From: an uncultured Gemmatimonadales bacterium
GTDB taxonomy: Bacteria > Actinomycetota > Acidimicrobiia > Spongiisociales > UBA5794
Assembly (NCBI GenBank): GCA_964195945.1
Contig: CAXMRC010000150.1
Span: forward strand, 16,400 to 80,399
Reading direction: 5' to 3'
DNA: 64,000 nt
Under the pieces are notes generated by a model. It saw only the letters and a list, made by a program, of their open reading frames with translations. It searched no databases and was not told where the DNA came from. Below, piece after piece: positions 3,875 to 64,000 of the stretch. Within the stretch, counting starts at the first letter, position 1, and each line of letters begins with the position of its first letter. A program made the position numbers and the translations under genes.

Positions 3875-5332
3875 CTATTCGATCGTCGAATTGATGACTT
3901 GGATGGGTCCGCTGCCCAAATAGAAGATCCCAGGGAACCCACTTGTCTCGAACCCGTCGCTTGGATTGCGGGCCAGCGTGGAATCCTCAATGCGCAGGGT
4001 GCCGCTGCGGTCGTTGCTCACAAAGAAGATAGCGCCCCCACCTTCGTTCGCATGGTTGTCTGCGATGACGGTATCGATGATCGTTAGTGTGAACGTGTTC
4101 CCGTCGTTGTAGATAGCTCCCCCGCTGCCACCACCAGGGGTGCCCCCTTGGGCTGGGTTGGCCCCGTCACCGATCGCCAGATTGTGGGTAAACAGGCTGT
4201 TGATCACGGTGTACGACACGCCGATGCTGCTGAGGCCACCCCCATTTGAACATACATTGCCGTAGCCCTCTCCCCCACCGAAGGTGCTGTTGACGATATA
4301 CACGGGTAGCCCTTCGTATTGGCTGAAGACACGGACGGCGGCACCGCCAACGTCAGGGCCGACATCGTCACAGACATTGTTGAAGAACCGAGAGTTGACG
4401 ATCTTGAATCGTCCCCCGCGAACCCAGATCGCACCGCCGCCGTCTGGCTCGTCACCCTTGGAATTGCCGTCGATGAAGGTCAGGTTCTGTACGGTGAGCC
4501 GAGGATGGTCCTGGTTCTGGCAATGCGACGTTGTCCAGACAAGATCCTGGTCGCACGTATTCATGTAGAGGATCCGGTTCTGGCCTCTGCCGCTGAGTGT
4601 GACCAGGCCACCGCCATCAATCACGATCTCAGGCCCCGTGTCGTTGAATACCTTGGCCTCCTCCACCATCTCGATCGTTACGGGGTCGGGACCGCAATCG
4701 AACACGATGATGCCCCCTTGGCCGACGGCCGCAACCACCGCTTGCGAGGTGCAACTCTCCGACGTGCCGTCCCCGATGACAATGCCTGGGTTGGTTACGT
4801 CCTCGGCCCGTCCTTCGGCCGGCACCGGAGCGGTCCCATCTGGATTTCCGGTTGGTGGCCCCGGCCGCGGCAGCGGGACTATTGGAGTGAGTCCTAGACC
4901 GCGCGTGAGAAACGTTGCCATCTGCTCTCGCAACACCGGATCTGATGGGCAGAACAGGTCGTTGTCCGGCGGGTTGCACCCTTTGGTGATGCCTGCTGCG
5001 GCGAGACGGTTGATGGAGTCCTCAAAGACTCCCTCGGCATCTGCAAACGGGGTGGCTGCGGTGGCGGGCAGGTCGAGCGCCCGAACCAAGAATGCCGCCA
5101 TCTGACCACGGGTCACCGAGTCTGATGGGCAGAACAGGTTATTGTCCGGCGGATTGCAGCCCTTGGTAATCCCCTGGGCGGCGATCGCTTCTATTGCGCC
5201 CTCATGTGCGCTGTTGTCGTCATCGAGAAACGATCCGCCGGGTGCGAGGTCAGCCACTGCTGCACCACCAGCCACGACTGCCGTCACAACCAAAACGAGA
5301 GCTGCCAAACCGGAGCGGAATCTGTTGATCAT
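3875..5332 (-). CDS. Secreted right-handed beta-helix protein (Pmp-type GGAI/FxxN repeats) with two N-terminal Cys-containing SLH-like repeats
   Basis: Start moved to MINRFRSGLAALVLVVTAVVAGGAAVA (signal peptide). Two repeats ...AAxGITKGCNPPDNxLFCPSDxVxRxQMAxFLxRxL. Pro-rich linker. Many GGAI...FxxN / NSxF repeats (GGGAIWVRGG, GGAIYNDGN, GGGAIFFVSN), as in polymorphic-membrane-protein or pectate-lyase-like beta-helices. Confidence 0.8.
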   Translation of the reverse strand: MINRFRSGLAALVLVVTAVVAGGAAVADLAPGGSFLDDDNSAHEGAIEAIAAQGITKGCNPPDNNLFCPSDSVTRGQMAAFLVRALDLPATAATPFADAEGVFEDSINRLAAAGITKGCNPPDNDLFCPSDPVLREQMATFLTRGLGLTPIVPLPRPGPPTGNPDGTAPVPAEGRAEDVTNPGIVIGDGTSESCTSQAVVAAVGQGGIIVFDCGPDPVTIEMVEEAKVFNDTGPEIVIDGGGLVTLSGRGQNRILYMNTCDQDLVWTTSHCQNQDHPRLTVQNLTFIDGNSKGDEPDGGGAIWVRGGRFKIVNSRFFNNVCDDVGPDVGGAAVRVFSQYEGLPVYIVNSTFGGGEGYGNVCSNGGGLSSIGVSYTVINSLFTHNLAIGDGANPAQGGTPGGGSGGAIYNDGNTFTLTIIDTVIADNHANEGGGAIFFVSNDRSGTLRIEDSTLARNPSDGFETSGFPGIFYLGSGPIQVINSTIE

Positions 5333-5370
5333 GAGCGAGAGGCTAATAGCGGACCAGGCGCTATCACCCA

Positions 5371-6540
5371 CTAGTCGCTGAGCCGTTGCTCCGTGGGGGT
5401 GCGGAAGCGTGGGATGAACCGCCGCTCGCCCAGCCACTGTTGCAGCTTCTCGGCCTGCGACTCGACCAGCACCCCTTCATCCCTGCTGACCTCTTCGAGA
5501 TAGGCCAAACGAATCTCGCCGTCAGTCGCTTGAACCCACCCGCCAACTACTCGACCATTCAGCCAGATTGTCGGGCCGGCGTTCCCGTTCCGGTCAAAAA
5601 GATGGCCCCGATGCGGACCTAGATACCAGCCGCGGTCTTTCCAACCCATCACCGTCGAGTCGAGCGACGGCAACAGAGCCGCCCAGGGCTCAACCACGGC
5701 AGGCGCCTCGAGATCGTCTGGCAACACGTAGCCGACTCCGCCGTCCAGCTCGACTTCAATGGCGCCACAGTCCGATAGAGCGGAGCGGGTGACCCTGACT
5801 CCCCACCCCGTCCACCACTTGACGTCGTCCAAGGTGCCCGGTCCGTACGCTCGCAGCCATTTCTTGGCGAGGGTGCTCTGCGCCTCCGCCGAATCGAGAG
5901 CCGCCCAGGGCTCATGCACCCACCTGTCGGTGCGAGCCCATCGGTATTGGGTCGACGTCCAGCTGCCGAGGGGTCTGGCACGGACAATCCGGCTCGCGGT
6001 CGCCAGCAGGAAGAGGACCCGTGTCGACAGCCCAACCTGTCCCGCCCATTTCTTACCCTCACCGAACGAGAGCTTGATACCCAGCTCAGGGACCTGTGTC
6101 TTTAGTTCCCTTGCAGTCGCCTCGCCCAGCTCTGCGATTGCTGCCATGGTCCGTTGTTCGATGCCCGCCAACCATATGTCACCATCTGCGGTGACCTCCT
6201 GAGCCTCCAGATAGCCAATCAGACGTTGTCTCTCGCCGGGAAGGAGGTGGCGGGTACACGCGGCGTCCATCACCGCGCCGAGATCTGTTGGCACCACGAA
6301 CATGGTGCGACGCATCCCGAGCATCCGGAGCAGGGAACGGTCTTCGTACAGCGATTGTTCCAGATCCTCCACCTTGAACCCGACTACACGGCTTTGGCAG
6401 CTCAGATATACCGTGGCTGGATCGCTCGAGTGCAACCCGACCAGGGCATCGGCTGCTCGGTCAACCCTATCGGTCGGTCCGGCAAGGTAGTGGCGCCGGC
6501 CGAGTCGTGCCCTGCGTTCCGCAATGGTGATCTTGTGCAT
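5371..6540 (-). CDS. Winged-helix DNA-binding domain protein of the YcaQ/AlkZ family (putative interstrand-crosslink DNA glycosylase)
   Basis: About 390 aa; LLRMLGMRRTMFVVP, KWWTGWG, GRVVGGW match DUF1006/HTH_42 AlkZ-like proteins. Start chosen at MHKITIAERRARL (6540), because the table ORF start at 6606 would overlap the divergent thioesterase gene. Confidence 0.6.
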   Translation of the reverse strand: MHKITIAERRARLGRRHYLAGPTDRVDRAADALVGLHSSDPATVYLSCQSRVVGFKVEDLEQSLYEDRSLLRMLGMRRTMFVVPTDLGAVMDAACTRHLLPGERQRLIGYLEAQEVTADGDIWLAGIEQRTMAAIAELGEATARELKTQVPELGIKLSFGEGKKWAGQVGLSTRVLFLLATASRIVRARPLGSWTSTQYRWARTDRWVHEPWAALDSAEAQSTLAKKWLRAYGPGTLDDVKWWTGWGVRVTRSALSDCGAIEVELDGGVGYVLPDDLEAPAVVEPWAALLPSLDSTVMGWKDRGWYLGPHRGHLFDRNGNAGPTIWLNGRVVGGWVQATDGEIRLAYLEEVSRDEGVLVESQAEKLQQWLGERRFIPRFRTPTEQRLSD

Positions 6541-14535: not shown

Positions 14536-15909
14536 CTAGCCGAGAGCGCGGTGCAAAAAGGCTGCCATCTCGGCCCTGGTCACTATTGAGTTGGGACAGA
14601 ACCGATCATTCTCGGGCGGGTTGCACCCCTTGGTAACGCCCGCGGCCGCCAGCGCCTCGATCGCCGATTCGAAGATCGAACCATCGTCGTCTGTGAAGCT
14701 GTCCCCGCCCGGGTCAACGTAGGAGAATGCACGCACCAAGAACGTGGCCATCTCGGCTCGGGTCAGGTTGCGATCAGGGCAGAAATTGGTGTTGGCGGGT
14801 GGATTGCAACCTTTTGTGATGCCAGCCGCGGCCAATGATTCGATCGCTCTCTCAAACAGCGAATCGTTGTCATCGGCAAACTGATCAGTCCCACCCGGGT
14901 CGGGTAACGACAATGCACGAGTGAGGAACGCGGCCATCTCGCCCCTGGTCACACCGTCCGTAGGGCAGAACCGGTCATTGGTGGGCGGGTTGCACCCTTG
15001 TGTGATGTTGGCGCTCGCCAACCAAATGATGTCGGACTCAAAGACGGAACTCTCGTCGTCGCGGAATGGCGGCACAAAGAACTCGGTGTCGTTACAGCCG
15101 ACGCGTTCCGGGCCAAAGGCCAAGGAATCGAAGTGGATTTCGTTGTCGACCAACGATGCCTCTCCGCCGTAGTAGATGTCGAACCAGAAGCTTTTGATGT
15201 CAATGTCAGGTTCAGTCGCTCTTCGGAACGCGATGTCACTCTTCGCAAAGGCTTCGGTGCCATCGACCCAGCCTTGCAACGTTCCGTCGTGTACCCCTGG
15301 CGTGTTGAGATCGATGCGACCCTCGACGCAATACCACCTGCCGTGGTCGAGGGTCGCCACATCGGGATCCCATGTCCAGATATCCCCGCGCGTTGCCGGA
15401 CTGTCGAGGTGATAGACGTAGAAACCGATCAAAGTCTTGTCATCCGGCCCATTCGGATACCCCGGCTGACCAAAGCTGGGATATGTACGAGAGAACAGCA
15501 TCCTGGCCGAGAAACAGGGCTCCTCGGGTGTTGAGGGGCGGCCCCCCAGACAGTTGTAGTTGTAGAGCCCAGCGACACCGGGAAGCTTGCCTCGATTGGG
15601 CGGCTCAACATAGAAACCCTCGGGGAACTGCACCCAGTAACGCCACCACAGCTCCTCAGGATCGCTGAGCCCGTGATCGGAAAAATCCCAATGACCGCTG
15701 CTCCCCCAGTGCTCGCCCGCGGGGATTACCGAGAGCAGTCCCGGTCCATCATGGCCAGCGGCGAGCGGAAGCATCCCCCAGCCGCCTGAGAAGACGTTCG
15801 CCGTACCGTCGCTAAATGACTCGTCAACCACAGTATTCGGGGCGTCGGCGCTGGCAGGTACAAGGCCAAGGAGCATGACGGCCAGTGCCACCGGAATCAT
15901 CCGTCTCAT
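14536..15909 (-). CDS. Secreted jelly-roll (concanavalin/polysaccharide-lyase-like) domain protein with three C-terminal Cys-containing SLH-like repeats
   Basis: Signal peptide MRRMIPVALAVMLLGLVPASA with GGGAGA SD. Unclassified N-terminal domain (GTLQGWVDG, FWFDIYYGG). Three repeats F.DD..S.FE..I..LA.AGITKGCNPPxNxxFCPxxxVTRxEMAxFLxRAL. Confidence 0.8.
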   Translation of the reverse strand: MRRMIPVALAVMLLGLVPASADAPNTVVDESFSDGTANVFSGGWGMLPLAAGHDGPGLLSVIPAGEHWGSSGHWDFSDHGLSDPEELWWRYWVQFPEGFYVEPPNRGKLPGVAGLYNYNCLGGRPSTPEEPCFSARMLFSRTYPSFGQPGYPNGPDDKTLIGFYVYHLDSPATRGDIWTWDPDVATLDHGRWYCVEGRIDLNTPGVHDGTLQGWVDGTEAFAKSDIAFRRATEPDIDIKSFWFDIYYGGEASLVDNEIHFDSLAFGPERVGCNDTEFFVPPFRDDESSVFESDIIWLASANITQGCNPPTNDRFCPTDGVTRGEMAAFLTRALSLPDPGGTDQFADDNDSLFERAIESLAAAGITKGCNPPANTNFCPDRNLTRAEMATFLVRAFSYVDPGGDSFTDDDGSIFESAIEALAAAGVTKGCNPPENDRFCPNSIVTRAEMAAFLHRALG

Positions 15910-16053
15910 CGATCTCCCTAACCACGATTGTGGCTGAGCGTAGACATACCCGGCCGGTAAGCGGAGGACCGAAATGCCAGCCAATAAGACAATGACTACA
16001 ACGGCGACGGTACATATTGATCAGACCGTCGCCCACTCAGAGTCCGACGTCGG

Positions 16054-25405: not shown

Positions 25406-26449
25406 ATGCAACAGACAGATCTTTCCTCCCTCCCCAAAGTGGAGCTGCACAACCATCTCGACGGAGGTCTACGCGTCGAGACTGTGATCACGCTCGCAGC
25501 CGCTATCAACTATGACCACTTGCCGAGCACAGATACCACCGAACTCGCGGCTTGGTTCCTCCAGGACGAATCAGGATCCCTCGAGCAATACCTGGCCGGT
25601 TTTGAGCACACCATCGCCGTCATGCAGACCAAGCCAGCGATCGAGCAGGTCGCATTCGAATCAGGGCTCGATCTGTCGGCCGACGGGGTTGTCTATGCAG
25701 AGATTCGGTTCGCACCGAGCCTCAACACTCGTCTTGGCCTAGCGCGGGAAGATGCGATCGAAGCTGCATTGCTGGGTTTTGAGCGCGCCGAAGCAGCAAC
25801 CGGAATCAAGATGCGTCTCCTTGTGGACGCTATGCGCAATGAGCCGGACTCCATTGCGGCCGCCAAAGCTGCGGTGCGCTTTGCCGATCAAGGTGTCGTC
25901 GGCTTCGATCTTGCCGGCCCTGAATTCGGGTTTCCTGCTGACGACCACGCCAACGCATGCCACCTGGCAAGCGACAATGGCCTCGGCCTGACCATCCACG
26001 CCGGCGAAGCCGACGGCCCCGACAGTATCCGTAGGGCCATCGATGGCTGTGGCGCACAGAGGATTGGACACGGGATTCGTATCGTGGACGACATTGACGC
26101 CGAGGATGACGTTATTGCGCGGATCGGCGATGTTGCCGCCATGGTGCGTGACCGCCAGATACCGCTCGAAGTGTGTCCGACATCCAACCTCCACACGCTC
26201 GGCATCCAACCGACCAGTCATCCCCTCGGGTTCTTGGCCCGCAACGGGTTCAATGTCACACTCAATACCGACAATCGTTTGATGAGTGCGGTAACCCTCA
26301 CCGATGAGTTTGCGTTTGCTGCTGAACACCACGGATTCGGTCTTGCGGATTTCCGGCGGGTGACGCTTGCTGCGCTGGACGCGGCATTCATCGACGAGAG
26401 CGTTAGATCACCCCTGCGCTCCATCGTGCTCGCAGGCTACGTCAGCTGA
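25406..26449 (+). CDS. add: Adenosine deaminase
   Basis: VELHNHLDGGLR, HAGE, SLNTDN. Start at MQQTDLSSLPK. Confidence 0.85.
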   Translation: MQQTDLSSLPKVELHNHLDGGLRVETVITLAAAINYDHLPSTDTTELAAWFLQDESGSLEQYLAGFEHTIAVMQTKPAIEQVAFESGLDLSADGVVYAEIRFAPSLNTRLGLAREDAIEAALLGFERAEAATGIKMRLLVDAMRNEPDSIAAAKAAVRFADQGVVGFDLAGPEFGFPADDHANACHLASDNGLGLTIHAGEADGPDSIRRAIDGCGAQRIGHGIRIVDDIDAEDDVIARIGDVAAMVRDRQIPLEVCPTSNLHTLGIQPTSHPLGFLARNGFNVTLNTDNRLMSAVTLTDEFAFAAEHHGFGLADFRRVTLAALDAAFIDESVRSPLRSIVLAGYVS

Positions 26450-27246
26450 GCCCTTAACCAGGTCGCCACGAACCCCATCACATCCTCTTGTTCCGGTTCG
26501 TTGTGGGTTTCGTGGCGCAGGCCTGCAAACAGCTTCCGTTCCACCCCGGGGAGTGCCGCCAAGGGCGCCGACGCACGAGGAGGAACCAGTTCATCGTCGG
26601 CGCCATGAATGACGAGGGTCGGTGTGGTGAGGCGGTTGAGCTTGTCTTTGATGTTGTCCATCTGACTCAAGAACACGGCGCCAAAGCGAGCAGTTGTTTT
26701 CGTTTGAACGAGCGGGTCTGCGAAGTACTTCTTTCCAACCGCAGGGTCACGGGAGAGTTGTTCGCCTTTGATCGAGCTGGGAAAGTACATCCCGGGCCGG
26801 ATCCGGCTCATGACTTTGGCAGCGAGACGAAGCGGAGCAGGTACATCGGCCGACAGTGCCGGGGCTGACAACACAAACAGGTCAGGCTGTGGTCTAACAC
26901 TTACCCCATAGGAGGCAGCCACCAACCCGCCCATCGAGTGACCGTAGATGACCGAGGGGACGTCCTTTGGCATCTCGCCAAGCACCACCTCCACGTCATC
27001 CAGGTACTCATCGAATGACCCGAGGTCCATCCTGTCGCCACCGGATGCCCCATGACCACGCTGGTCGAACGCCAAGACGCAGAAGCCCTGGGCGACGAGA
27101 TAATCACCGACATGTTCGTACCGTCCGGAGTGCTCACCGAGACCGTGCACGATCAGCACCCGTGCGATGGGGTTCTCGCAGGCCCAATGCCTGATGAGAA
27201 GGCCCAAACCGTCGTTCGCCATCAGTTGCGACGTCGTGCTGGTCAT
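26437..27246 (-). CDS. Alpha/beta hydrolase (lysophospholipase/monoglyceride-lipase-like)
   Basis: GHSMGG nucleophile elbow, HG oxyanion motif (LIVHGLGEHSGRY). Confidence 0.8.
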   Translation of the reverse strand: MTSTTSQLMANDGLGLLIRHWACENPIARVLIVHGLGEHSGRYEHVGDYLVAQGFCVLAFDQRGHGASGGDRMDLGSFDEYLDDVEVVLGEMPKDVPSVIYGHSMGGLVAASYGVSVRPQPDLFVLSAPALSADVPAPLRLAAKVMSRIRPGMYFPSSIKGEQLSRDPAVGKKYFADPLVQTKTTARFGAVFLSQMDNIKDKLNRLTTPTLVIHGADDELVPPRASAPLAALPGVERKLFAGLRHETHNEPEQEDVMGFVATWLRAQLT

Positions 27247-27977
27247 ACCGTTCCTCCGGTTGCGAGTGCTGCGCCGATGATGCCCGCACGGTTCCGGAAT
27301 CGCGCAGGAGCGATGGTTGCTCTCGTGTCCAACAAATCCGAGTAGCGATCAAAGTTCTTCGAGATTCCTCCGCCAAGGATGATGTGATCCGGGGGTACCA
27401 CCCGTTCCAAATAGTTCAAGAACTCATTCAGGCGAACCGCCCACTCCCGTTCCGCGAGACCCTCATTTACGAGACGGGCCGCCGCGTAGAGCTCGGCATC
27501 CTCGCCTTTGAATTCCAGATGGCCTAGCTCGGTGTTAGGTACGAGGGCCCCGTCGATGAACAAGGCGCTGCCGATACCCGTCCCCAAGGTCAACAAGAGG
27601 ACAACGCCAAAGCGATCTCGGGCCGCTCCCCACATGTTCTCTGCTAGCCCGGCTGCATCCGCATCATTCAGGACGGTGACGGGCAACCCCAGCCGTCCGG
27701 TCAGGTCCGCCCCGGCGTCGGTGCCTATCCACGAGTCGTCGATATTGGCAGCCGTATAGGCCACCCCTGATCGGACGATTGCGGGCAAAGCGCAACCAAC
27801 CGGCCCCGTCCAGCCGAAATGAGAAACCAACTCGCCGATGACGTCGTAGACGGCCTCTGGAGTCGACGGTTGCGGCGTGGGTATACGCATGCGTTTCACC
27901 ACGCGTTTTCCTGTTGCGAGCTCAACGGGAGCAGCCTTGATCCCGCTACCCCCTACATCGATTCCCAGGGCCTCCAT
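27243..27977 (-). CDS. ppgK: Polyphosphate glucokinase (ROK family)
   Basis: MEALGIDVGGSGIK at the N-terminus, ROK fold. GAGAGGA SD before the ATG at 27977. Confidence 0.8.
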   Translation of the reverse strand: MEALGIDVGGSGIKAAPVELATGKRVVKRMRIPTPQPSTPEAVYDVIGELVSHFGWTGPVGCALPAIVRSGVAYTAANIDDSWIGTDAGADLTGRLGLPVTVLNDADAAGLAENMWGAARDRFGVVLLLTLGTGIGSALFIDGALVPNTELGHLEFKGEDAELYAAARLVNEGLAEREWAVRLNEFLNYLERVVPPDHIILGGGISKNFDRYSDLLDTRATIAPARFRNRAGIIGAALATGGTV

Positions 27978-27987
27978 GATGTCCTCT

Positions 27988-28527
27988 CTACGTGCCCGAT
28001 CGCACAATCGTACAAAACCGGGCATTCTCTTGCTGCGGCCACGCTACCTGGACGCGTAGCCCACCGGGGTATTCGGGGAAATCTCGACCGAGAGGGGTGC
28101 AACCGACGAACCCGTTCGCTGTCAACCGTTGCGCTGCGCTCTCCGCCGAACTGGGAAGGCTGGCAACGAACCACGGCGATTCCGGTTGCCCATGGGGCAG
28201 GCGTAACCCTGGTACCTGGGTGAGGCTGGCGGCCAGATGTCGTGCGTCGCGAACCGTCGACCCAGTAAGACCGTGCGGGAGGTCATGCGAGATTTCGAGC
28301 ACCACAGCCGGGGGCGGCGGGCTGGCCTCAAACCGGCCGAAGTAATTGGGCTCTTCCACGATGAACAGTCGGTTCGTGGGAGCCGCGATCGTCTCCCATA
28401 CGGTGCGACCGCCGACCACAGGGACCTCGACCACCCCCGCCAGCCCGGCAAGGTCGCGGAACCATGATGCTCGCGACAGCGCGACTCCATCCATTCCCTG
28501 TTCTGTGGCGATCGCAAGGAGGTCCAC
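27988..28527 (-). pseudogene. Remnant of the glycine dehydrogenase N-terminal subunit (gcvPA-like), internally and N-terminally truncated
   Basis: 179-aa ORF. ...LFIVEEPNYFGRFEA matches the GcvPA (V)QxPNFFG block, and PWFVASLP...ANGFVGCTPLGRDFP...LRVQVAW matches the GcvPA C-terminal block PFFNEFVV...HGIIGGYDLG...LIAVTE. About 270 aa of the 450-aa protein, including the PLP region, are absent. No gcvPB follows. Confidence 0.45.
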
Positions 28528-28541
28528 TCGGCGTCACGGAA

Positions 28542-29585
28542 TCAGCGGTCGAGGAACGGCGGGTTGACCATTTCCACTGCTTGCCACTTGCCTCTCACCT
28601 CTAACTCGAGAGGCGACCGATCAGCAATGGGGGGTGATATGAAGCCCATGCCGATGCCGACCTCGAGCACCGGGCTGAAGTTGCCGGAGGCGACGACCCC
28701 TGTTGCGGCGCCGGAGCGGAGCGGATACCCATGGCGCGGTGGGCGTCGATCGGCGGTGCGAAAGGCGACCAACTGCTTGTTGAGACCGCCATCGCGTTGC
28801 GCCAACAACGCACCACGTCCGACGAATTCGTGATCCCAATCGACCACCCAGGCGAGACCGGCTTCAAGCGGACTCGTCTCCTCATCAAGGTCCTGGCCCC
28901 AAAGCGGATAGCCCATCTCGAGTCGCAGGGTGTCGCGCGCACCGAGGCCAGATGCCACGGCCCCCGCCTCAAGGAGCGCTCTCAGAAGAGCAGCGCCGTT
29001 CTCGTTGGGTACCGCTACCTCGGCGCCTCTCTCACCGGTATACCCGGTGCCTGCAGTCCACATCGGGCCACCGGCAAACTCGCCGGTCTCAACCCGGAAG
29101 CGGCCGGGAACAAGTCCAATTGCGGCCTCTAGCACTTCGGCGCTGTCCGGTCCCTGAACGGCAAGAAGCACCGTGTCGGATCGCACCGGCACTGCTTGAG
29201 CGTCCGAGGAAGCTGTGAACCGCGCAAGCAAATCGTCGAAATTCACACCGTTCGGCATGACCCAGTAGTCATCTTCGGCGAATCGCCAGATGATGATGTC
29301 GTCGACAACACCACCACTTTCGTTGAGGGCCATTGTGTACTGGGCTCGGCCAGGTTTGATCTTGGTGATGTCGTTGCAGAGCTCGCGTCCTATAGCTGCG
29401 GTGGCGCCGGGGCCGCTTAGGTGGAAGCGGCCGAGGTGGGTTACGTCAAAGACCCCAACAGACTGGCGCACCGCCATGTGCTCTGCGATGACACTCTGGT
29501 ATTGGAGAGGCATCTCCCAACCGCCAAAGTCGGTGAAGCGAGCCCCTAGTGCTTCATGTTCAGAGCGCAACGGCGTACCGGGCAT
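28542..29585 (-). CDS. gcvT: Aminomethyltransferase (glycine cleavage T protein)
   Basis: GARFTDFGGWEMPLQY, GVFDVTHLGRF. Start trimmed to MPGTPLRS with GGAGG SD. Confidence 0.85.
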   Translation of the reverse strand: MPGTPLRSEHEALGARFTDFGGWEMPLQYQSVIAEHMAVRQSVGVFDVTHLGRFHLSGPGATAAIGRELCNDITKIKPGRAQYTMALNESGGVVDDIIIWRFAEDDYWVMPNGVNFDDLLARFTASSDAQAVPVRSDTVLLAVQGPDSAEVLEAAIGLVPGRFRVETGEFAGGPMWTAGTGYTGERGAEVAVPNENGAALLRALLEAGAVASGLGARDTLRLEMGYPLWGQDLDEETSPLEAGLAWVVDWDHEFVGRGALLAQRDGGLNKQLVAFRTADRRPPRHGYPLRSGAATGVVASGNFSPVLEVGIGMGFISPPIADRSPLELEVRGKWQAVEMVNPPFLDR

Positions 29586-29661
29586 TTGGGAGACCTCCAG
29601 AGTCAAAGTACCGATTGAGCCTAACCCGACCCGGGTGTCTGCACGCAGCGGGAGGAGTCCG

Positions 29662-30012
29662 TCAGCCGACGGCCCGCGTGTCATCTTCGCCGAGGTCTTC
29701 GATGCGCGGAGCACCAGGCATTCTGGTTGGGACCGTTGGCAGGCCCTGATCTGGTGGCTCTTCCAGACCGTATTTGACCAGCAGGTTGAGATAGTCACGC
29801 TGGTAGAAGACTTTGCACACGATCTCGGGATGGACTTCGTGAAGGAGACGAGCCTTACGGTTCTTCTTTGTGACAAGCTTCTGGCTCATCGTCGTGATCT
29901 CGATGTAGAGATCATCCCCAGGAAGATAGAAGTCCGGGCGGAAGAACTGGACCGGGTTGTTGTCGGCATCGAATTCAATCGCAAACTCGCGCGGCTCGTA
30001 CTCCCAGTCCAC
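29662..30012 (-). CDS. Conserved hypothetical protein (116 aa), in the position of the small gene between gcvT and the MerR gene in actinobacteria
   Basis: Protein-like composition (FRPDFYLPGDDLYIEI, FYQRDYLNLLVKYGLE). No recognisable domain. Confidence 0.45.
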   Translation of the reverse strand: MDWEYEPREFAIEFDADNNPVQFFRPDFYLPGDDLYIEITTMSQKLVTKKNRKARLLHEVHPEIVCKVFYQRDYLNLLVKYGLEEPPDQGLPTVPTRMPGAPRIEDLGEDDTRAVG

Positions 30013-32851: not shown

Positions 32852-33573
32852 CCCTCGAGCAGTCGACGGAGCCTCGACCTGACCAGGTTCTCTTGAAGCT
32901 GGGCGCCGGCACTCGCCCCATCGGCGAGCACCTCGGCGGCACGACGTCGATTCTTTGGATTGCGGTGACGCAATAGCGGCGTGACGAGCTGTGCCAGCAG
33001 ATCGACCTCGCGATCAGCGGCGAGCCGCAGGGACCGAATATGGCGTCCCTCAAAGCCACGGCCAAACAATCGATATGCCGAGCGGGCAATCGCTAGGTCC
33101 TCGTCGCGAAACACCTGGCGCCCATCGGGCAATTCGAGCGGGCTTAGTACACCCTGGGTAATCAGTTCCTCTACCTGTTCGCGGCTGAGGCCGCTGGCCC
33201 TGCATAGTTCATCAATAGCCATCGAGACACCGGCGCTGCCAAAGTAGGCTTCTGGCGCCGGACCGCTGTCCCGCGGTGTTGTGGTGTCTTCGCCTCGATC
33301 CCATGATGTCAGCTTCGATTTGATTACCTTGAGCGGCAGGAAGTGGTCGCGTTGCTCACTAAGAACGTAGCGAAGGCGTTCGACATCTTCCTCAGCAAAC
33401 ATCCGATACCCGGAAGGGCTTCTCGTCGGCGCGATCAAGCCCTGAGCCTCGAGGAAGCGCACCTTCGATACCGAGATATCAGGGAAATCCGCACGCAGAC
33501 TGTTGATGACCTCGCCAATGGAACGGGTCTTGCGAGCAGCGAATTGAGCCGGGGCGCTGGCTTCGTCAGCCAT
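32848..33573 (-). CDS. MerR family transcriptional regulator (GarA-neighbour type)
   Basis: HTH SIGEVINSLRADFPDISVSKVRFLEAQGLI. Confidence 0.75.
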   Translation of the reverse strand: MADEASAPAQFAARKTRSIGEVINSLRADFPDISVSKVRFLEAQGLIAPTRSPSGYRMFAEEDVERLRYVLSEQRDHFLPLKVIKSKLTSWDRGEDTTTPRDSGPAPEAYFGSAGVSMAIDELCRASGLSREQVEELITQGVLSPLELPDGRQVFRDEDLAIARSAYRLFGRGFEGRHIRSLRLAADREVDLLAQLVTPLLRHRNPKNRRRAAEVLADGASAGAQLQENLVRSRLRRLLEG

Positions 33574-33979
33574 GTCCGCCGGCCACGACCAGGTGGAACT
33601 TGCCGATGATCACCTCGTCGCCGGGCTGCAACCTGGCACTGTCATGTCGTTCGGCGTTGACATAGGTTCCGTTCGTGGACCGTAGGTCTTCCACATTTAG
33701 CCCATCTTCATCGACAGTGAAACGGGCATGATGGCGGGAAACGGTTACGTCTCCTAAGAAGATCGCGACGTCTTCAGATCGGCCGGCGAGGGTCTTCCCT
33801 TCCCCGAGAACATAAGTCAGACCGGCCCGGGGCCCGCGCTCCACAATCAAGGCGTAGCGAAATGCTCCCTCGATTTTTCCAACCATCTCTCCGACGTCGC
33901 CGGCGCCGCCGTCCGGGTCGTAGTAAACGGTCTTTTCAGCGTCGGGGATGTCGTCGGGCGCGTTGTATTGATCGGCCAT
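33566..33979 (-). CDS. garA: FHA-domain regulator GarA/OdhI
   Basis: N-terminal phospho-acceptor region and C-terminal FHA (GRSEDVAIFLGDVTVSRHHARF...STNGTYVN). Confidence 0.85.
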   Translation of the reverse strand: MADQYNAPDDIPDAEKTVYYDPDGGAGDVGEMVGKIEGAFRYALIVERGPRAGLTYVLGEGKTLAGRSEDVAIFLGDVTVSRHHARFTVDEDGLNVEDLRSTNGTYVNAERHDSARLQPGDEVIIGKFHLVVAGGHG

Positions 33980-34050: not shown

Positions 34051-34428
34051 CTACTCGCTAAAGGTCGCGTAGGCGGCAGAATCCATGAGTGCTTCGACAC
34101 CGCTGACGTCACCCTCGATGACAACAAACCACGCCGACTCGTAGGGATCGGAATTGATGGTCTCAGGCGCGTCGACAAGCACCTCGTTAGCAGCCACAAC
34201 CGTTCCAGCGATGGGCGAATAAACGTCTGCCACCGATTTCGTCGACTCGATCTCTGCGAAGGCTTCCCCCGCCGCCAGTTCGGCACCCACCTCGGGAAGG
34301 TCGACGAAGACGACATCTCCGAGAGCATCCTGGGCGAAATCGGTTATTCCGACGCGGACCTTGCCATCGTCTTCAATCGCTACCCATTCATGGTTCTCGG
34401 TGTAACGGAGTCCCTCTGGAATCTGCAC
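34051..34428 (-). CDS. gcvH: Glycine cleavage system H protein
   Basis: YTENHEWV, lipoyl-Lys motif EIESTKSVADVY. Confidence 0.9.
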   Translation of the reverse strand: MQIPEGLRYTENHEWVAIEDDGKVRVGITDFAQDALGDVVFVDLPEVGAELAAGEAFAEIESTKSVADVYSPIAGTVVAANEVLVDAPETINSDPYESAWFVVIEGDVSGVEALMDSAAYATFSE

Positions 34429-60361: not shown

Positions 60362-63300
60362 TCACTTGACGTCCAGGGTCACCGTGGCGATGTTCGACAC
60401 CGCCCCCGGACTGGTCACCTGGTAGGTGAAGGTGTCCTCGCCGAAGAACGCGTTTCGTCCGTCCGTCGGCAGATATGTGAAGGACCCGTCTGCATTGAGG
60501 GTCACCGTACCGTGTGTGGCGTCGGAGACGAGCTCCGCTGTCATCGGGTCACCTTCCGGGTCGGAGTCGTTGGCCAACACCCCAGGTGCCGACACGTTGG
60601 TGCGCTGCGGGTTTCGCCTGGTCCACGCATTTGCATCGAAGCCGTCGTCCACCGCCGTCGGTGGAAGGTTGGGGTTGTCCGCCGGGTCGGCGAAGCGCAC
60701 GATGCCCCACAGCCCCTGGAACCGGCCAAACGAGCCGATGTCGCTGAATAGGTAGTCACCGGGTACCGCAAACGTGCCACCCGTCTTTCTGGGCACGAAG
60801 TCGAAGTGGCTGGAAGCGCCGATACCTTCCTGGGCACCAGTCCACCACGACCGCATGTTGTGGCGGTTGGCGTTGTGGGTGCTCGCCGACAGGTCCAGGT
60901 GATTGTGGGTGCGGAAATCGTCGCCAATGTCCGCACTGCCGTTCACATACGGTTCCCGCTGCCAGGCATGGCCGTTGATGGTCATCACAATGCCGCGGGC
61001 ATGGCCGCCCGGCTGCACCACCCGCATCCGGAATTGCATGGCGTCCGCATTGCCGTCGCCATCGACGTCTGTGAACGGCTCCGTCGAGACGGTGAACACC
61101 GGCGTCTGCGGGTCTCCCACCGACGTCGGCGTCGGTGCGCCCAGCAGGGGCAGGCTGTTGGAGAACACGTCGAACTGGGTCGCTCCGCGCAGGTTCGCGT
61201 GCTCGAACGGCGTGTTGGGGGCGATACCCAGCCGGAACCACAGCGGCTCGGTGCCGTAGTTGATCCCCTTCTGTCCGGAGTCTTGCGGATCCTCGGGCAC
61301 TCCGCCGCCCTCGGCAGCCACGTTGGGTACGGCGCAGTCCATCGCCGTACCAACCCCGGGACAGCCTCCGCCGTAGCGGAGGTTGACGTCGGTCTGGAGG
61401 ACCGTGACAAACTCCCGGAACGCGGTATCGGTGCCGTCGTTCCACTTCTTGAATACCGTGGCCGAAGCCCGACTGTCGGCGTCTTCGATCCAGGTGGCGT
61501 CCTCGGGTTCGATCACCAGCGCACCCACCAGGCCCTTGTTGGAGCCGGTGATGCGGTCGGCCGGCATCAGGTTGACCACCCCGAACTCCACCGGAGTCGC
61601 CACCAGGGTGACCGAGCCGTCGGGATTGTTGGTCACGCCGATGTCGCCGGCATACCAGGTGTACTTCTTCGAAGCACCGGGTGGCACCAGTTGCGCATCG
61701 GATTGGGTCCCGGTCAAGAACCCGTCGCTGTCGCGAACGTTGTACTCGACAAGCTGGGCGTGGAGCCCGACCAGGCTGGAGGGCGTCAAGTCATTGGCGT
61801 TGAAGGTGGTGATTCCTTGGACACCGTTATTGAGGACGTTCTTGTCCTTGGCCACGATCGGCGGTAGGGCGCTGAACCCGGGCAGGTTCGGGACCACCGT
61901 GGGCAGGGCATTGGTTAGCTCCACCTCTACGCAGTCGCCCGCGTTGGCTCGCAATATGAGCGGCTCGACAGGCACGCCCGGTTTGAGGCCGTTGGGATTG
62001 CCGTCGCCGTCGTAGGTCAGGTCTTCGTTACGGACGTACATCAGCGCGGTCGGGTCGATCAGGGGACCGGCACCTTGCTCCAAACCGGTGGTCGGATCGG
62101 TCACTCCGTTGGTCCGGGTGTTGTACACCAGCCCGTCGGGTCCGAGTACATCTGCTGCCCGCACCGCGGTGACCCGGATGAATCGCTCGGGTGCGATGTT
62201 GGGGCACACTCTCGGCTGAGGATTTCCCCTACCCCTCTTCGGTGGCGTGAACTCGCCGATGTTGGTGATCGTCGGCGTCCCGTTAGCCGAGAAGTCGTTG
62301 TTGGGGAGCGGCAGCAGGTCGGCGCGGGCCCTCCCGTAGCTGCGCAGGATGCCCCACACGCCGTTCCACAGATCCTCGGTTTGGGCACCCATCGTCCACA
62401 TGTAGTCGAGTGTGGCCGGATTGCCGGACCCGATGTCGGGCACCACCGGCATCTCGATGTTGAAGTACTCAGAGATGCCCATGAACTGCGAGTTCCTCCA
62501 GCCGGAGTCGGCGCCGTGTTCCTCCTGACGCCACTTCAGGCCGTGGATGGTCATATTGTGTTCTTCCTCATGGGCCCCGGTCTGGACCCGGAAACGCACT
62601 TTGTCACCCATGTACACCCGCGCCAGTGGTGTGGCCGGGTCACCCGGAAGTACGCCACCGGTCAGCGCCGGATAGGGGATCTGGCCCTGAGTGGTGTTGA
62701 GGTCGGCGATGGCCCGGTCGGTCCGTGTCTCGAAGGCGCGGGCCAGGTCGCCGGCTTCGCCGGCCGTCTGGCCGGGTGCGGCCACGGGCAGACCCGTGTC
62801 CGGGTCGATCACCGTCTTGTCTGGATCGAACACGCGCAGTCCGATGGGCTCGTTGCGGTAATTGACCACATAGGTGCCGGGATCATCGGCCGAGATGGCC
62901 TCCGGACACGGCCGCGGCACCACGTTGCCGGGCACGCTGCCCGGGCACTGGTTCGGGAACCAGAACAGATCGGCCAGCCGATTTGCCGGGGGCTCCTGTC
63001 GCACCGACGGGTTAACGGCGTTGAAGAAGTCGGCATACGAGTTGATCAGGACACCGTCCCCGTTGTCGACCTGCGTCAAGGCACCTTGGCCGGCCTCATA
63101 GGCGTGCTGGAAGTCGGCGAACTCCATGAAGAACTCGCGATGGCTGTTGGCCGGATCCGGCGTAAGGATATCGGCGCGCCAGCTCGTCGGCCCGCCGTCT
63201 TGACGGGCGACGGTGTCGCTGGCTGTCACCTGCGAAGTTTCACCAGGCAGGAACTGCGGACCGGTCTCAGGCACATAGAGCGTGTCGTCGCCAGAGCCGT

Positions 63301-64000
63301 CGAACACGCCACCCATCGTTTCGCCGGTCTCCGGATCGCGCCACGTCGACCCCATTGGCTCGACCAGTACGGTCGAATACAGGCCCACCTGTTGGTGGGT
63401 GGAAGGGCCGTAGTGGTCGTGGGTGAACACCGTGCCCAGACCGCGGTCCCAGCTCTGGGACAGCAGCGGATCGGCGTACCAACGTTGCGCAGTGGTACGA
63501 GCACCCCAGGCGAGGTCACCCACGCCGGGCACATTCTTGAAGTACGGGTGCGCCACCGCCAGCGGGCACGCCGCGGTGGCGAAGTCGTTGACATCGAGCC
63601 GGCGATCGCCGTTGACGTCAACGAAGCCTTCGCCGCACCCGCCGTTGGCGGCCGCGTTGTTGGAGATGGCGTGGATACGCTCTTCCACCTCTTGCGGGCT
63701 CAGGGTGCCGTCCTCGTAGTTCCAACCATTGGCGGAGCCGTCGGCGGAAGTGACATCGAACTTCACCAGGTGGATGTGCTGACCGATGATGTCGGTCGGC
63801 GTCTTCACCTGATAGTCGTCGAGCTCGTAGACGTTGGGCACCAGGTTGGTGTGCCAGAACTCGGCACACTCGGTGGGGTTGAGCCGCATCACGAGCGGCT
63901 CCGGCGCCTTGGCCTCGGTCAACATCGGGCCGACGTCCTCCCACAGCGCCTCAAAGCGCTGCTGTTGGAAGTGCCAGCCGACCTTGTTGAGGGTGATGTC
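60362..64000 (-). CDS. Giant multicopper-oxidase-like secreted protein with non-canonical copper motifs and a C-terminal cadherin-like (VCBS/Big-type) domain. The 5' end runs off the window.
   Basis: The reading frame is open to nt 64000. IGQHIHLVKFDV aligns with the MCO L3 motif (HPxHLHGHxFxV), keeping the two T3 His. THDHYGPSTHQQVGLY aligns with the L4 motif (HCHxxxHxxxGM) with Cys to Asp. There is no HCH anywhere. HEEEHNMTIHGLKW is L1-like. C-terminal GVLANDSDPEGDPMTAELVSDATHGTVTLNADGSFTYLPTDG...DTFTYQV is a cadherin-like repeat. Confidence 0.8.
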   Translation of the reverse strand, partial: DITLNKVGWHFQQQRFEALWEDVGPMLTEAKAPEPLVMRLNPTECAEFWHTNLVPNVYELDDYQVKTPTDIIGQHIHLVKFDVTSADGSANGWNYEDGTLSPQEVEERIHAISNNAAANGGCGEGFVDVNGDRRLDVNDFATAACPLAVAHPYFKNVPGVGDLAWGARTTAQRWYADPLLSQSWDRGLGTVFTHDHYGPSTHQQVGLYSTVLVEPMGSTWRDPETGETMGGVFDGSGDDTLYVPETGPQFLPGETSQVTASDTVARQDGGPTSWRADILTPDPANSHREFFMEFADFQHAYEAGQGALTQVDNGDGVLINSYADFFNAVNPSVRQEPPANRLADLFWFPNQCPGSVPGNVVPRPCPEAISADDPGTYVVNYRNEPIGLRVFDPDKTVIDPDTGLPVAAPGQTAGEAGDLARAFETRTDRAIADLNTTQGQIPYPALTGGVLPGDPATPLARVYMGDKVRFRVQTGAHEEEHNMTIHGLKWRQEEHGADSGWRNSQFMGISEYFNIEMPVVPDIGSGNPATLDYMWTMGAQTEDLWNGVWGILRSYGRARADLLPLPNNDFSANGTPTITNIGEFTPPKRGRGNPQPRVCPNIAPERFIRVTAVRAADVLGPDGLVYNTRTNGVTDPTTGLEQGAGPLIDPTALMYVRNEDLTYDGDGNPNGLKPGVPVEPLILRANAGDCVEVELTNALPTVVPNLPGFSALPPIVAKDKNVLNNGVQGITTFNANDLTPSSLVGLHAQLVEYNVRDSDGFLTGTQSDAQLVPPGASKKYTWYAGDIGVTNNPDGSVTLVATPVEFGVVNLMPADRITGSNKGLVGALVIEPEDATWIEDADSRASATVFKKWNDGTDTAFREFVTVLQTDVNLRYGGGCPGVGTAMDCAVPNVAAEGGGVPEDPQDSGQKGINYGTEPLWFRLGIAPNTPFEHANLRGATQFDVFSNSLPLLGAPTPTSVGDPQTPVFTVSTEPFTDVDGDGNADAMQFRMRVVQPGGHARGIVMTINGHAWQREPYVNGSADIGDDFRTHNHLDLSASTHNANRHNMRSWWTGAQEGIGASSHFDFVPRKTGGTFAVPGDYLFSDIGSFGRFQGLWGIVRFADPADNPNLPPTAVDDGFDANAWTRRNPQRTNVSAPGVLANDSDPEGDPMTAELVSDATHGTVTLNADGSFTYLPTDGRNAFFGEDTFTYQVTSPGAVSNIATVTLDVK

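Follow-up and report, generated by a model that had tools for sequence, protein, structure and literature searches.

In the two-subunit glycine decarboxylase (P-protein), GcvPA is the alpha subunit, free of pyridoxal 5'-phosphate (PLP), and the cofactor lysine is carried by the beta subunit (GcvPB); without P-protein, the T-protein (GcvT) has no substrate. In fold-type I PLP enzymes the N-terminal arm and the central segments build much of the dimer interface and the active site. In Mycobacterium tuberculosis the P-protein gene closes the super-locus gcvH-garA-MerR(Rv1828)-...-MerR-gcvP (Rv1826-Rv1832), and in mycobacteria a single-chain gcvB occupies the P-protein position. Here we analyzed a 64,000-nucleotide (nt) stretch of an uncultured Acidimicrobiia genome (contig CAXMRC010000150.1, positions 16,400 to 80,399; hereafter the window), in which a gene for a 179-amino-acid (aa) GcvPA-like protein lies directly downstream of gcvT. 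This mini-GcvPA gene, referred to as the stub, occupies positions 27988..28527 on the (-) strand, with a GTG start at 28527 and a TAG stop at 27988-27990. An initial annotation had described it as a decayed gcvPA fragment in a shrunken gcvT-gcvPA-gcvPB operon. We found that the stub is a real gene, with a product predicted to be well folded, kept by selection in many Acidimicrobiia, and not a dying pseudogene; it is probably a selected, non-catalytic derivative of GcvPA that arose in situ.

Relationship of the Stub to GcvPA

Taken as a single sequence, the stub is only weakly similar to GcvPA. It scores below the threshold of the GcvPA family NF001696 (E-value 0.004, 16.1 bits, cut-off 364) and has no Pfam match, including PF02347 (GDC-P), even at E ≤ 1. 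Stronger evidence came from a 25-sequence alignment of the stub with 24 clear homologues of 29-65% identity. In a search of the PDB with the family profile, the sole significant protein was Thermus thermophilus GcvPA (1wyt_A, E 6.8e-6), matched in two collinear stretches: profile positions 35-76 to residues 176-216, which include PNFLG, and positions 103-167 to residues 346-410. Comparison with full-length GcvPAs by hhalign gave a probability of 97.7% (E 2.1e-12) and aligned stub residues 92-179 with GcvPA residues 359-450, C-terminus included. GcvPA chains were also at the top of a Foldseek search with the stub model. By these comparisons the resemblance to GcvPA exceeds chance, in line with the initial assignment of the ORF to GcvPA.

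The stub is collinear with GcvPA along all of its 179 residues: segments 1-23, 24-70, 71-82, and 83-179 correspond to residues 140-162, 171-217, 245-256, and 343-441 of a syntenic 444-aa GcvPA, and GcvPA residues 1-139, 218-244, and 257-342 are unmatched. The N-terminal lobe (aa 1-82; 28282..28527, (-) strand) holds four strands of the large domain and equals GcvPA ~140-256 minus 27 residues. It contains the PNYFG motif (aa 60-64; 28336..28350, (-) strand), found in GcvPA as QxPNFFGxIE; P60, N61, G64, and E67 of the stub are the GcvPA invariants P214, N215, G218, and E221, so that the stub has the same PNxFGxxE motif. The C-terminal small domain (aa 83-179; 27991..28281, (-) strand) is an end-to-end homologue of the GcvPA C-terminal domain (~343-441). 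The GcvPA with which it shares its FPEYPGG motif (aa 150-156; 28060..28080, (-) strand) is specifically the syntenic one of Acidimicrobiia ("DFPEFPGGLLVAVTE"). Of the two GcvPA blocks quoted in the initial annotation, IVEEPNYFGRFE occupies aa 56-67 of the stub and PWFVASLPSSAESAAQRLTANGFVGCTPLG occupies aa 118-147. The large losses noted there were also found, although their extent differs: 139 N-terminal and ~113 internal residues are missing, against the earlier estimates of 125 and ~135.

GcvPA is ~440-450 aa long and has its N-terminal arm and its whole large domain; the stub has 40% of that length, no gcvPB adjoins it, and it evolves ~6x faster than gcvT. The REQHIRREKATSNICT loop lies within the internal deletion. 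The regular expression for the central GcvPA loop, TREQHIRREKATSNICTNQ, is missing from 129 of the 137 family matches (see below), the window protein included, and only true GcvPAs carry it. Apart from shared ancestry, nothing places the stub within GcvPA.

Origin in Place from a gcvT-gcvPA-gcvPB Operon

An exhaustive search of 1.84 billion representative sequences with a profile hidden Markov model (HMM) identified a GcvPA, P0069, as the best full-length relative of the stub (E 2e-16; ordinary GcvPAs reached ~1e-4). The contig of P0069 (locus L010) carries the same super-locus as the window, with the order small protein-gcvT-gcvPA-gcvPB-Hydrolase_4 and a convergent adenosine deaminase gene. 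A second locus (L015) reads gcvT-gcvPA-gcvPB-ppgK-hydrolase, with gcvPA intact at 444 aa, and a third (L027) has gcvT-gcvPA-gcvPB in the syntenic position of the stub. The motifs AGRTxW, PNYLG, and DFPEFPGG are common to the stub and the GcvPAs of these three loci. In a neighbor-joining tree of 179 shared columns the stubs form one clade (99/100), whose sister group is the syntenic Acidimicrobiia GcvPAs, to the exclusion of other GcvPAs (100/100). Because all three loci hold full-length gcvT-gcvPA-gcvPB at exactly this position, we conclude that the stub arose in place, by a single origin from the gcvPA of the ancestral operon, and that gcvPB was deleted. The view of the locus as a reduced gcvT-gcvPA-gcvPB operon is thus borne out by the alignment with relatives.

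The same data bear on the idea that the stub belongs to an unrelated small family that has only the general architecture of fold-type I aminotransferases in common with GcvPA. Compared with fold-type I PLP enzymes such as histidinol-phosphate aminotransferase and SufS/NifS, the stub lacks the cofactor lysine and the N-terminal segment, and its sheet falls short of the full seven strands. GcvPA is the sole significant sequence match in the PDB, the closest full-length relative is syntenic and has AGRTxW, PNYxG, and FPEFPGG in common with the stub, the genomic position is the same, and the tree groups the two. Synteny and sequence combined refute this explanation, to which we give almost no probability.

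The three assemblies with full-length gcvPA are riddled with frameshifts, and gcvT, gcvPB, peptidase, and adenosine deaminase are among the split genes. These splits are probably long-read errors, and those in gcvPB should not be taken as pseudogenization. A search with the C-terminal part of a related GcvPB gave fragments only. A short one among them, in L027 (P0217), was considered as a "mini-GcvPB" and rejected as one such frameshift split. In L015 the genes for the bifunctional nuclease and the second MerR are separated by an inserted gene for a TrkA-type potassium channel (L015:4847-5845).

In the ancestral operon the slot held by ppgK in the window comes after gcvPB (gcvPA-gcvPB-ppgK in L015), and replacement of gcvPB through insertion of ppgK was rejected, since L015 has gcvPB and then ppgK. 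In accordance with the initial annotation, no gcvPB follows the stub. Searches of the whole 64-kb window by tblastn with related GcvPA and GcvPB queries detected no GcvPB, and the GcvPA query matched the stub alone; a Pfam scan found the GDC-P domain in none of the window's ORFs of at least 330 aa.

Longer forms of the stub were also found. The subfamily of 266-276 aa (P0064, P0071, P0114, and P0125) aligns to GcvPA 155-450 (E 3e-15), has two more large-domain strands than the 180-aa form, and is homologous to it (E 1.6e-21); both members checked (P0064 in L011 and P0071 in L014) lie in the order gcvT-stub-hydrolase without ppgK. A 236-aa form lies between gcvT and ppgK in L013. Full-length, 270-aa, 236-aa, and 180-aa forms thus occupy one shared operon slot. 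The longer forms nest among the short ones in the tree, and the middle region was therefore trimmed variably after a single origin. Separate origins of the 180-aa and 270-aa forms were rejected, since all stubs are monophyletic (99/100).

The surroundings of the stub are actinobacterial, as first described. The locus resembles the M. tuberculosis super-locus in gcvH, the FHA protein, the Rv1828-type MerR, the bifunctional nuclease, the second MerR, the small protein, and the P-protein position. It differs at the P-protein position itself, where Acidimicrobiia have gcvT-gcvPA-gcvPB and the clade of the window has gcvT-stub-ppgK. The two-subunit P-protein had been regarded as a Firmicutes/Thermus-type trait; the source names of the GcvPB matches, together with L010, L015, and L027, indicate instead that it is the normal state in Acidimicrobiia.

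Conservation and Selection

The profile search matched 137 representative clusters (50% identity level) at E ≤ 1e-3; removal of the true GcvPAs leaves a stub family of 129 clusters, whose median length is 195 aa. All members with a source name are called "hypothetical protein", and a literature search on this protein family, Acidimicrobiia glycine cleavage, and gcvPA/PB found nothing relevant. The stub occurs in ~20 independent genome or metagenome loci, in the slot [gcvT]-stub-[ppgK]-hydrolase, with its frame open in every one; two low-coverage, apparently chimeric contigs (L022 and L023) were excluded. The named stub loci are all Acidimicrobiia or Actinomycetota metagenome-assembled genomes (MAGs). 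Stub-carrying assemblies include JAAETI01, CAMYKI01, JAYEIP01, JASJEG01, JARFRN01, CAZWDQ01, JANTHO01 (GCA_024762335.1), and JAOZMA01. One Acidimicrobiia MAG has two stub genes, P0011 (QNL12_01755), 47% identical to the window protein, and P0280 (QNL12_12175), which belongs to the P0006 cluster (~54% identical); these are either two paralogues or the product of a bin that mixes two strains.

Nine columns are invariant in the 25-sequence alignment (P36, V37, G40, P60, N61, G64, E152, G155, and G156), as are the PNYFG and FPEFPGG motifs. Family-wide, S18, P36, V38, G40, T42, P60, N61, G64, E67, Q104, G107, P154, G155, and G156 are invariant or nearly so, and in a set of 99 members P60, N61, and G64 are retained at 93-99%. 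Among the codon positions of the stub, the third varies most. The ratio of non-synonymous to synonymous substitution rates (dN/dS) in unsaturated pairs of stubs was 0.35 (L004-L019, Fisher P 9e-7), 0.29 (L012-L024, Fisher P 2e-9), and 0.40 (L005-L018, P 0.02), and it was 0.05-0.06 for gcvT and the 116-aa neighbor in the same pairs. Saturated pairs of stubs gave 0.13-0.18, an approximate range because dS is saturated. For gcvT the overall range is 0.025-0.06.

gcvT has been lost in parts of the clade. In L001, L007, and L009 the order is small protein-stub-ppgK without gcvT, and the stub has a dN/dS of ~0.13-0.19 over a dS of at least 1.7 (L007-L009: dS about 1.7, dN/dS about 0.19). In L005 a clean deletion of ~1045 bp took gcvT and spared its last ~25 codons (L005:440-660 compared with L006:5119-6163 and L018). 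L018, a close relative (92.8% nucleotide identity), still has gcvT, and the loss in L005 is a recent, second independent one in the stub-bearing clade. With gcvPB absent from every member and at least two losses of gcvT, the glycine-cleavage operon as a whole is eroding in this clade, and the GcvPA relic is the part of it that stays.

These results bear directly on the initial description of the ORF as decayed and subject to ongoing gene loss, that is, as a non-functional gcvPA leftover heading for deletion. Much of GcvPA is indeed gone, as is the whole of gcvPB, the dN of the stub is the highest in the locus, the retained length differs between lineages, and the loss of gcvT in some relatives suggests that the whole operon is eroding. 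However, frames are intact in ~20 loci down to 29% identity with the window protein, non-synonymous differences (pN) are significantly fewer than synonymous ones (pS) with the P values of 9e-7 and 2e-9 given above, the motifs do not vary, AlphaFold gives a confident model, the family extends to 129 clusters, and the stub outlasts the loss of gcvT in L007-L009. Decay is largely refuted by this evidence and is a very unlikely account of the stub.

It was also considered that the frame is kept open merely to deliver ribosomes to ppgK or the hydrolase gene and that the peptide is functionless. The junctions are tight: the stub starts 14 nt from the gcvT stop (TGA, 28542-28544), its own stop lies 10 nt before the ppgK ATG, 4-nt overlaps occur in L011, L013, and L014, and no strong Shine-Dalgarno sequence was seen ahead of the stub's GTG. 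Yet coupling selects an open frame and not amino acids, and the stub has a three- to seven-fold deficit of non-synonymous changes, specific motifs are invariant, and co-variation suffices for a model of predicted local distance difference test (pLDDT) 92; a far shorter ORF would do for coupling. Selection at the amino-acid level therefore argues against a pure role in translational coupling, which we consider about as improbable as decay.

The stub is thus best explained as a selected, non-catalytic derivative of GcvPA, and several points weigh against this explanation. No gene of the locus evolves faster than the stub (dN 2-7x that of its neighbors, dN/dS up to 0.4), and the constraint on it is modest, ~six-fold weaker than on the neighbors. 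The retained middle varies (~180, 236, and 270 aa), which could be read as stepwise erosion, and signals for translational coupling at the nucleotide level could supply part of the constraint. The 179 columns of the neighbor-joining tree come from fast-evolving sequences, and long-branch effects are possible. Its action as a binding module, described below, is a mechanism that we infer.

Predicted Fold and Possible Function

An AlphaFold2 model built from the 25-sequence alignment is compact (pLDDT 91.8, predicted template modeling score 0.84) and has two lobes. One comprises the four strands that remain of the large-domain sheet and the other a complete C-terminal small domain, in the mutual orientation that they have in GcvPA. 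None of Lys, His, Cys, and Asp is conserved across the family (for Lys, Asp, and His, at ≥70% among 99 members), and the stub resembles GcvPA in having no PLP lysine. The stub is unable to form a canonical fold-type I active site. Because a conserved lysine and the active-site loop are both missing, the protein is almost certainly non-catalytic.

We propose that the ancestral Acidimicrobiia operon had the order gcvT-gcvPA-gcvPB-(ppgK)-hydrolase and stood at the end of the super-locus gcvH-garA-MerR. One clade would have deleted gcvPB and shed from gcvPA the N-terminal arm (~139 aa) and the central region with the active-site loop (~113 aa), so that four strands of the large domain remain, packed on the intact C-terminal small domain. 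This relic would then have been retained through a deep radiation under purifying selection weaker than that on its neighbors, with its translation tightly coupled to gcvT upstream and to ppgK or the hydrolase gene downstream. The protein may act as a pseudoenzyme-like binding or accessory module through protein-protein contacts; candidate partners are a P-protein beta subunit or another glycine-cleavage or one-carbon component encoded elsewhere, and the products of its own operon. It resembles pseudoenzymes and microProteins (a concept and not a sequence family) as a truncated enzyme-subunit paralogue with a core predicted to fold, no catalytic elements, and evidence of selection. It differs from them in that its parent subunit is itself non-catalytic alone.

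A more specific possibility is that the stub takes part in glycine decarboxylase, paired as a mini-alpha with a GcvPB encoded elsewhere. In such a pair it could serve an active enzyme as its minimal alpha subunit, or it could titrate the beta subunit as a dominant-negative regulator of the microProtein type. gcvT and gcvH remain in the locus, and the strong constraint on gcvT (see above) implies that genomes with the stub have a P-protein gene elsewhere; that this is a single-chain GcvP, as the initial annotation proposed, is a conjecture. The PNxFGxxE and C-terminal motifs specific to GcvPA are kept, and the LPHGQPESPWF motif is degenerate in precisely the clade without gcvT, a correlation that would fit a contact related to glycine cleavage. 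On the other hand, the stub has neither the N-terminal arm nor the REQHIRREKATSNICT loop, it persists without gcvT nearby, and by tblastn no P-protein, and hence no gcvPB, was found within ~10 kb of any stub, nor is there a gcvPB in the 64-kb window. We regard this possibility as unlikely, and are equally doubtful that the mini-GcvPA binds a beta-type subunit, GcvH, or GcvT encoded elsewhere and thereby completes or blocks glycine decarboxylase.

As a non-catalytic GcvPA derivative under selection, the stub would be a natural example of an enzyme subunit cut to ~40% of its length and then long kept as a folded, selected protein, and a case of relic exaptation. What is new is a miniaturized, conserved derivative of a PLP-enzyme subunit, represented in the window by a protein that Pfam does not match. 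The family marks an Acidimicrobiia clade whose glycine-cleavage operon lost the P-protein genes and, repeatedly, gcvT. In metabolic reconstruction from MAGs, a "GcvPA-like" match at this locus must be kept out of the P-protein count. Regulation or complementation of a relocated P-protein by the stub would amount to a new way of controlling one-carbon metabolism; if the stub acts on the decarboxylase, this sediment/marine Acidimicrobiia clade would have a previously undescribed P-protein architecture for glycine cleavage.

Neighboring Genes and Other Features of the Window

Upstream of the stub, gcvT (28542..29585, (-) strand, 347 aa, ATG at 29585) is intact, as the initial annotation had it, and strongly constrained, and was identified by Pfam (PF01571, E 9e-77) and NCBIfam (NF001567, 374 bits, cut-off 300). 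A mechanically called gcvT ORF of 444 aa (28542-29876, TTG at 29876) overlaps the gene for the 116-aa protein; the true start is the ATG at 29585. Downstream lies ppgK, which encodes a polyphosphate glucokinase of the ROK family (27243..27977, (-) strand, ATG at 27977; NF045942, E 1e-93) and is preceded by a GAGAGGA Shine-Dalgarno sequence. A mechanical ppgK ORF of 260 aa (27243-28025) overlaps the stub, and the true start is again the ATG at 27977. The constant last gene of the operon encodes a Hydrolase_4 alpha/beta hydrolase (26437..27246, (-) strand); in loci that reach far enough downstream it follows the stub, ppgK, or gcvPB.

The conserved 116-aa protein (29662..30012, (-) strand) is the constant upstream neighbor of gcvT or the stub, with 58-86% identity across all related loci and a dN/dS of 0.04-0.06. 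It has no Pfam match, and its PDB match to T7 endonuclease I is non-significant (E 0.27). Its PDFYLP...YIEIT stretch resembles a PD-(D/E)xK nuclease motif, and its gene sits between the second MerR gene and gcvT. The head of the super-locus is formed by gcvH (34051-34428; PF01597, E 1e-40) and a garA-like gene for an FHA protein (33566-33979; PF00498, E 1e-17), both on the (-) strand. The order in the window is CDP-alcohol transferase, gcvH, FHA (garA-like), Rv1828-type MerR, D-Ala-D-Ala carboxypeptidase, then hpt, bifunctional nuclease, second MerR, and the 116-aa protein.

In the whole 64-kb window no Rfam family reached its gathering score, so that no tRNA or other known RNA was detected, and no glycine riboswitch was found ahead of gcvT or gcvH. 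Promoter and terminator scans of the DNA gave signals no better than shuffled sequence. Elsewhere in the window, two genes on the (-) strand (3875-5437 and 14536-15984) encode S-layer-homology (SLH) domain proteins, one of which also carries a polysaccharide lyase 14 domain, and a third (60362-63925, (-) strand) has a product of 1187 aa in which cadherin-like and Big_9 domains occur. All are cell-surface proteins, which is noteworthy for a genome of the actinobacterial type.
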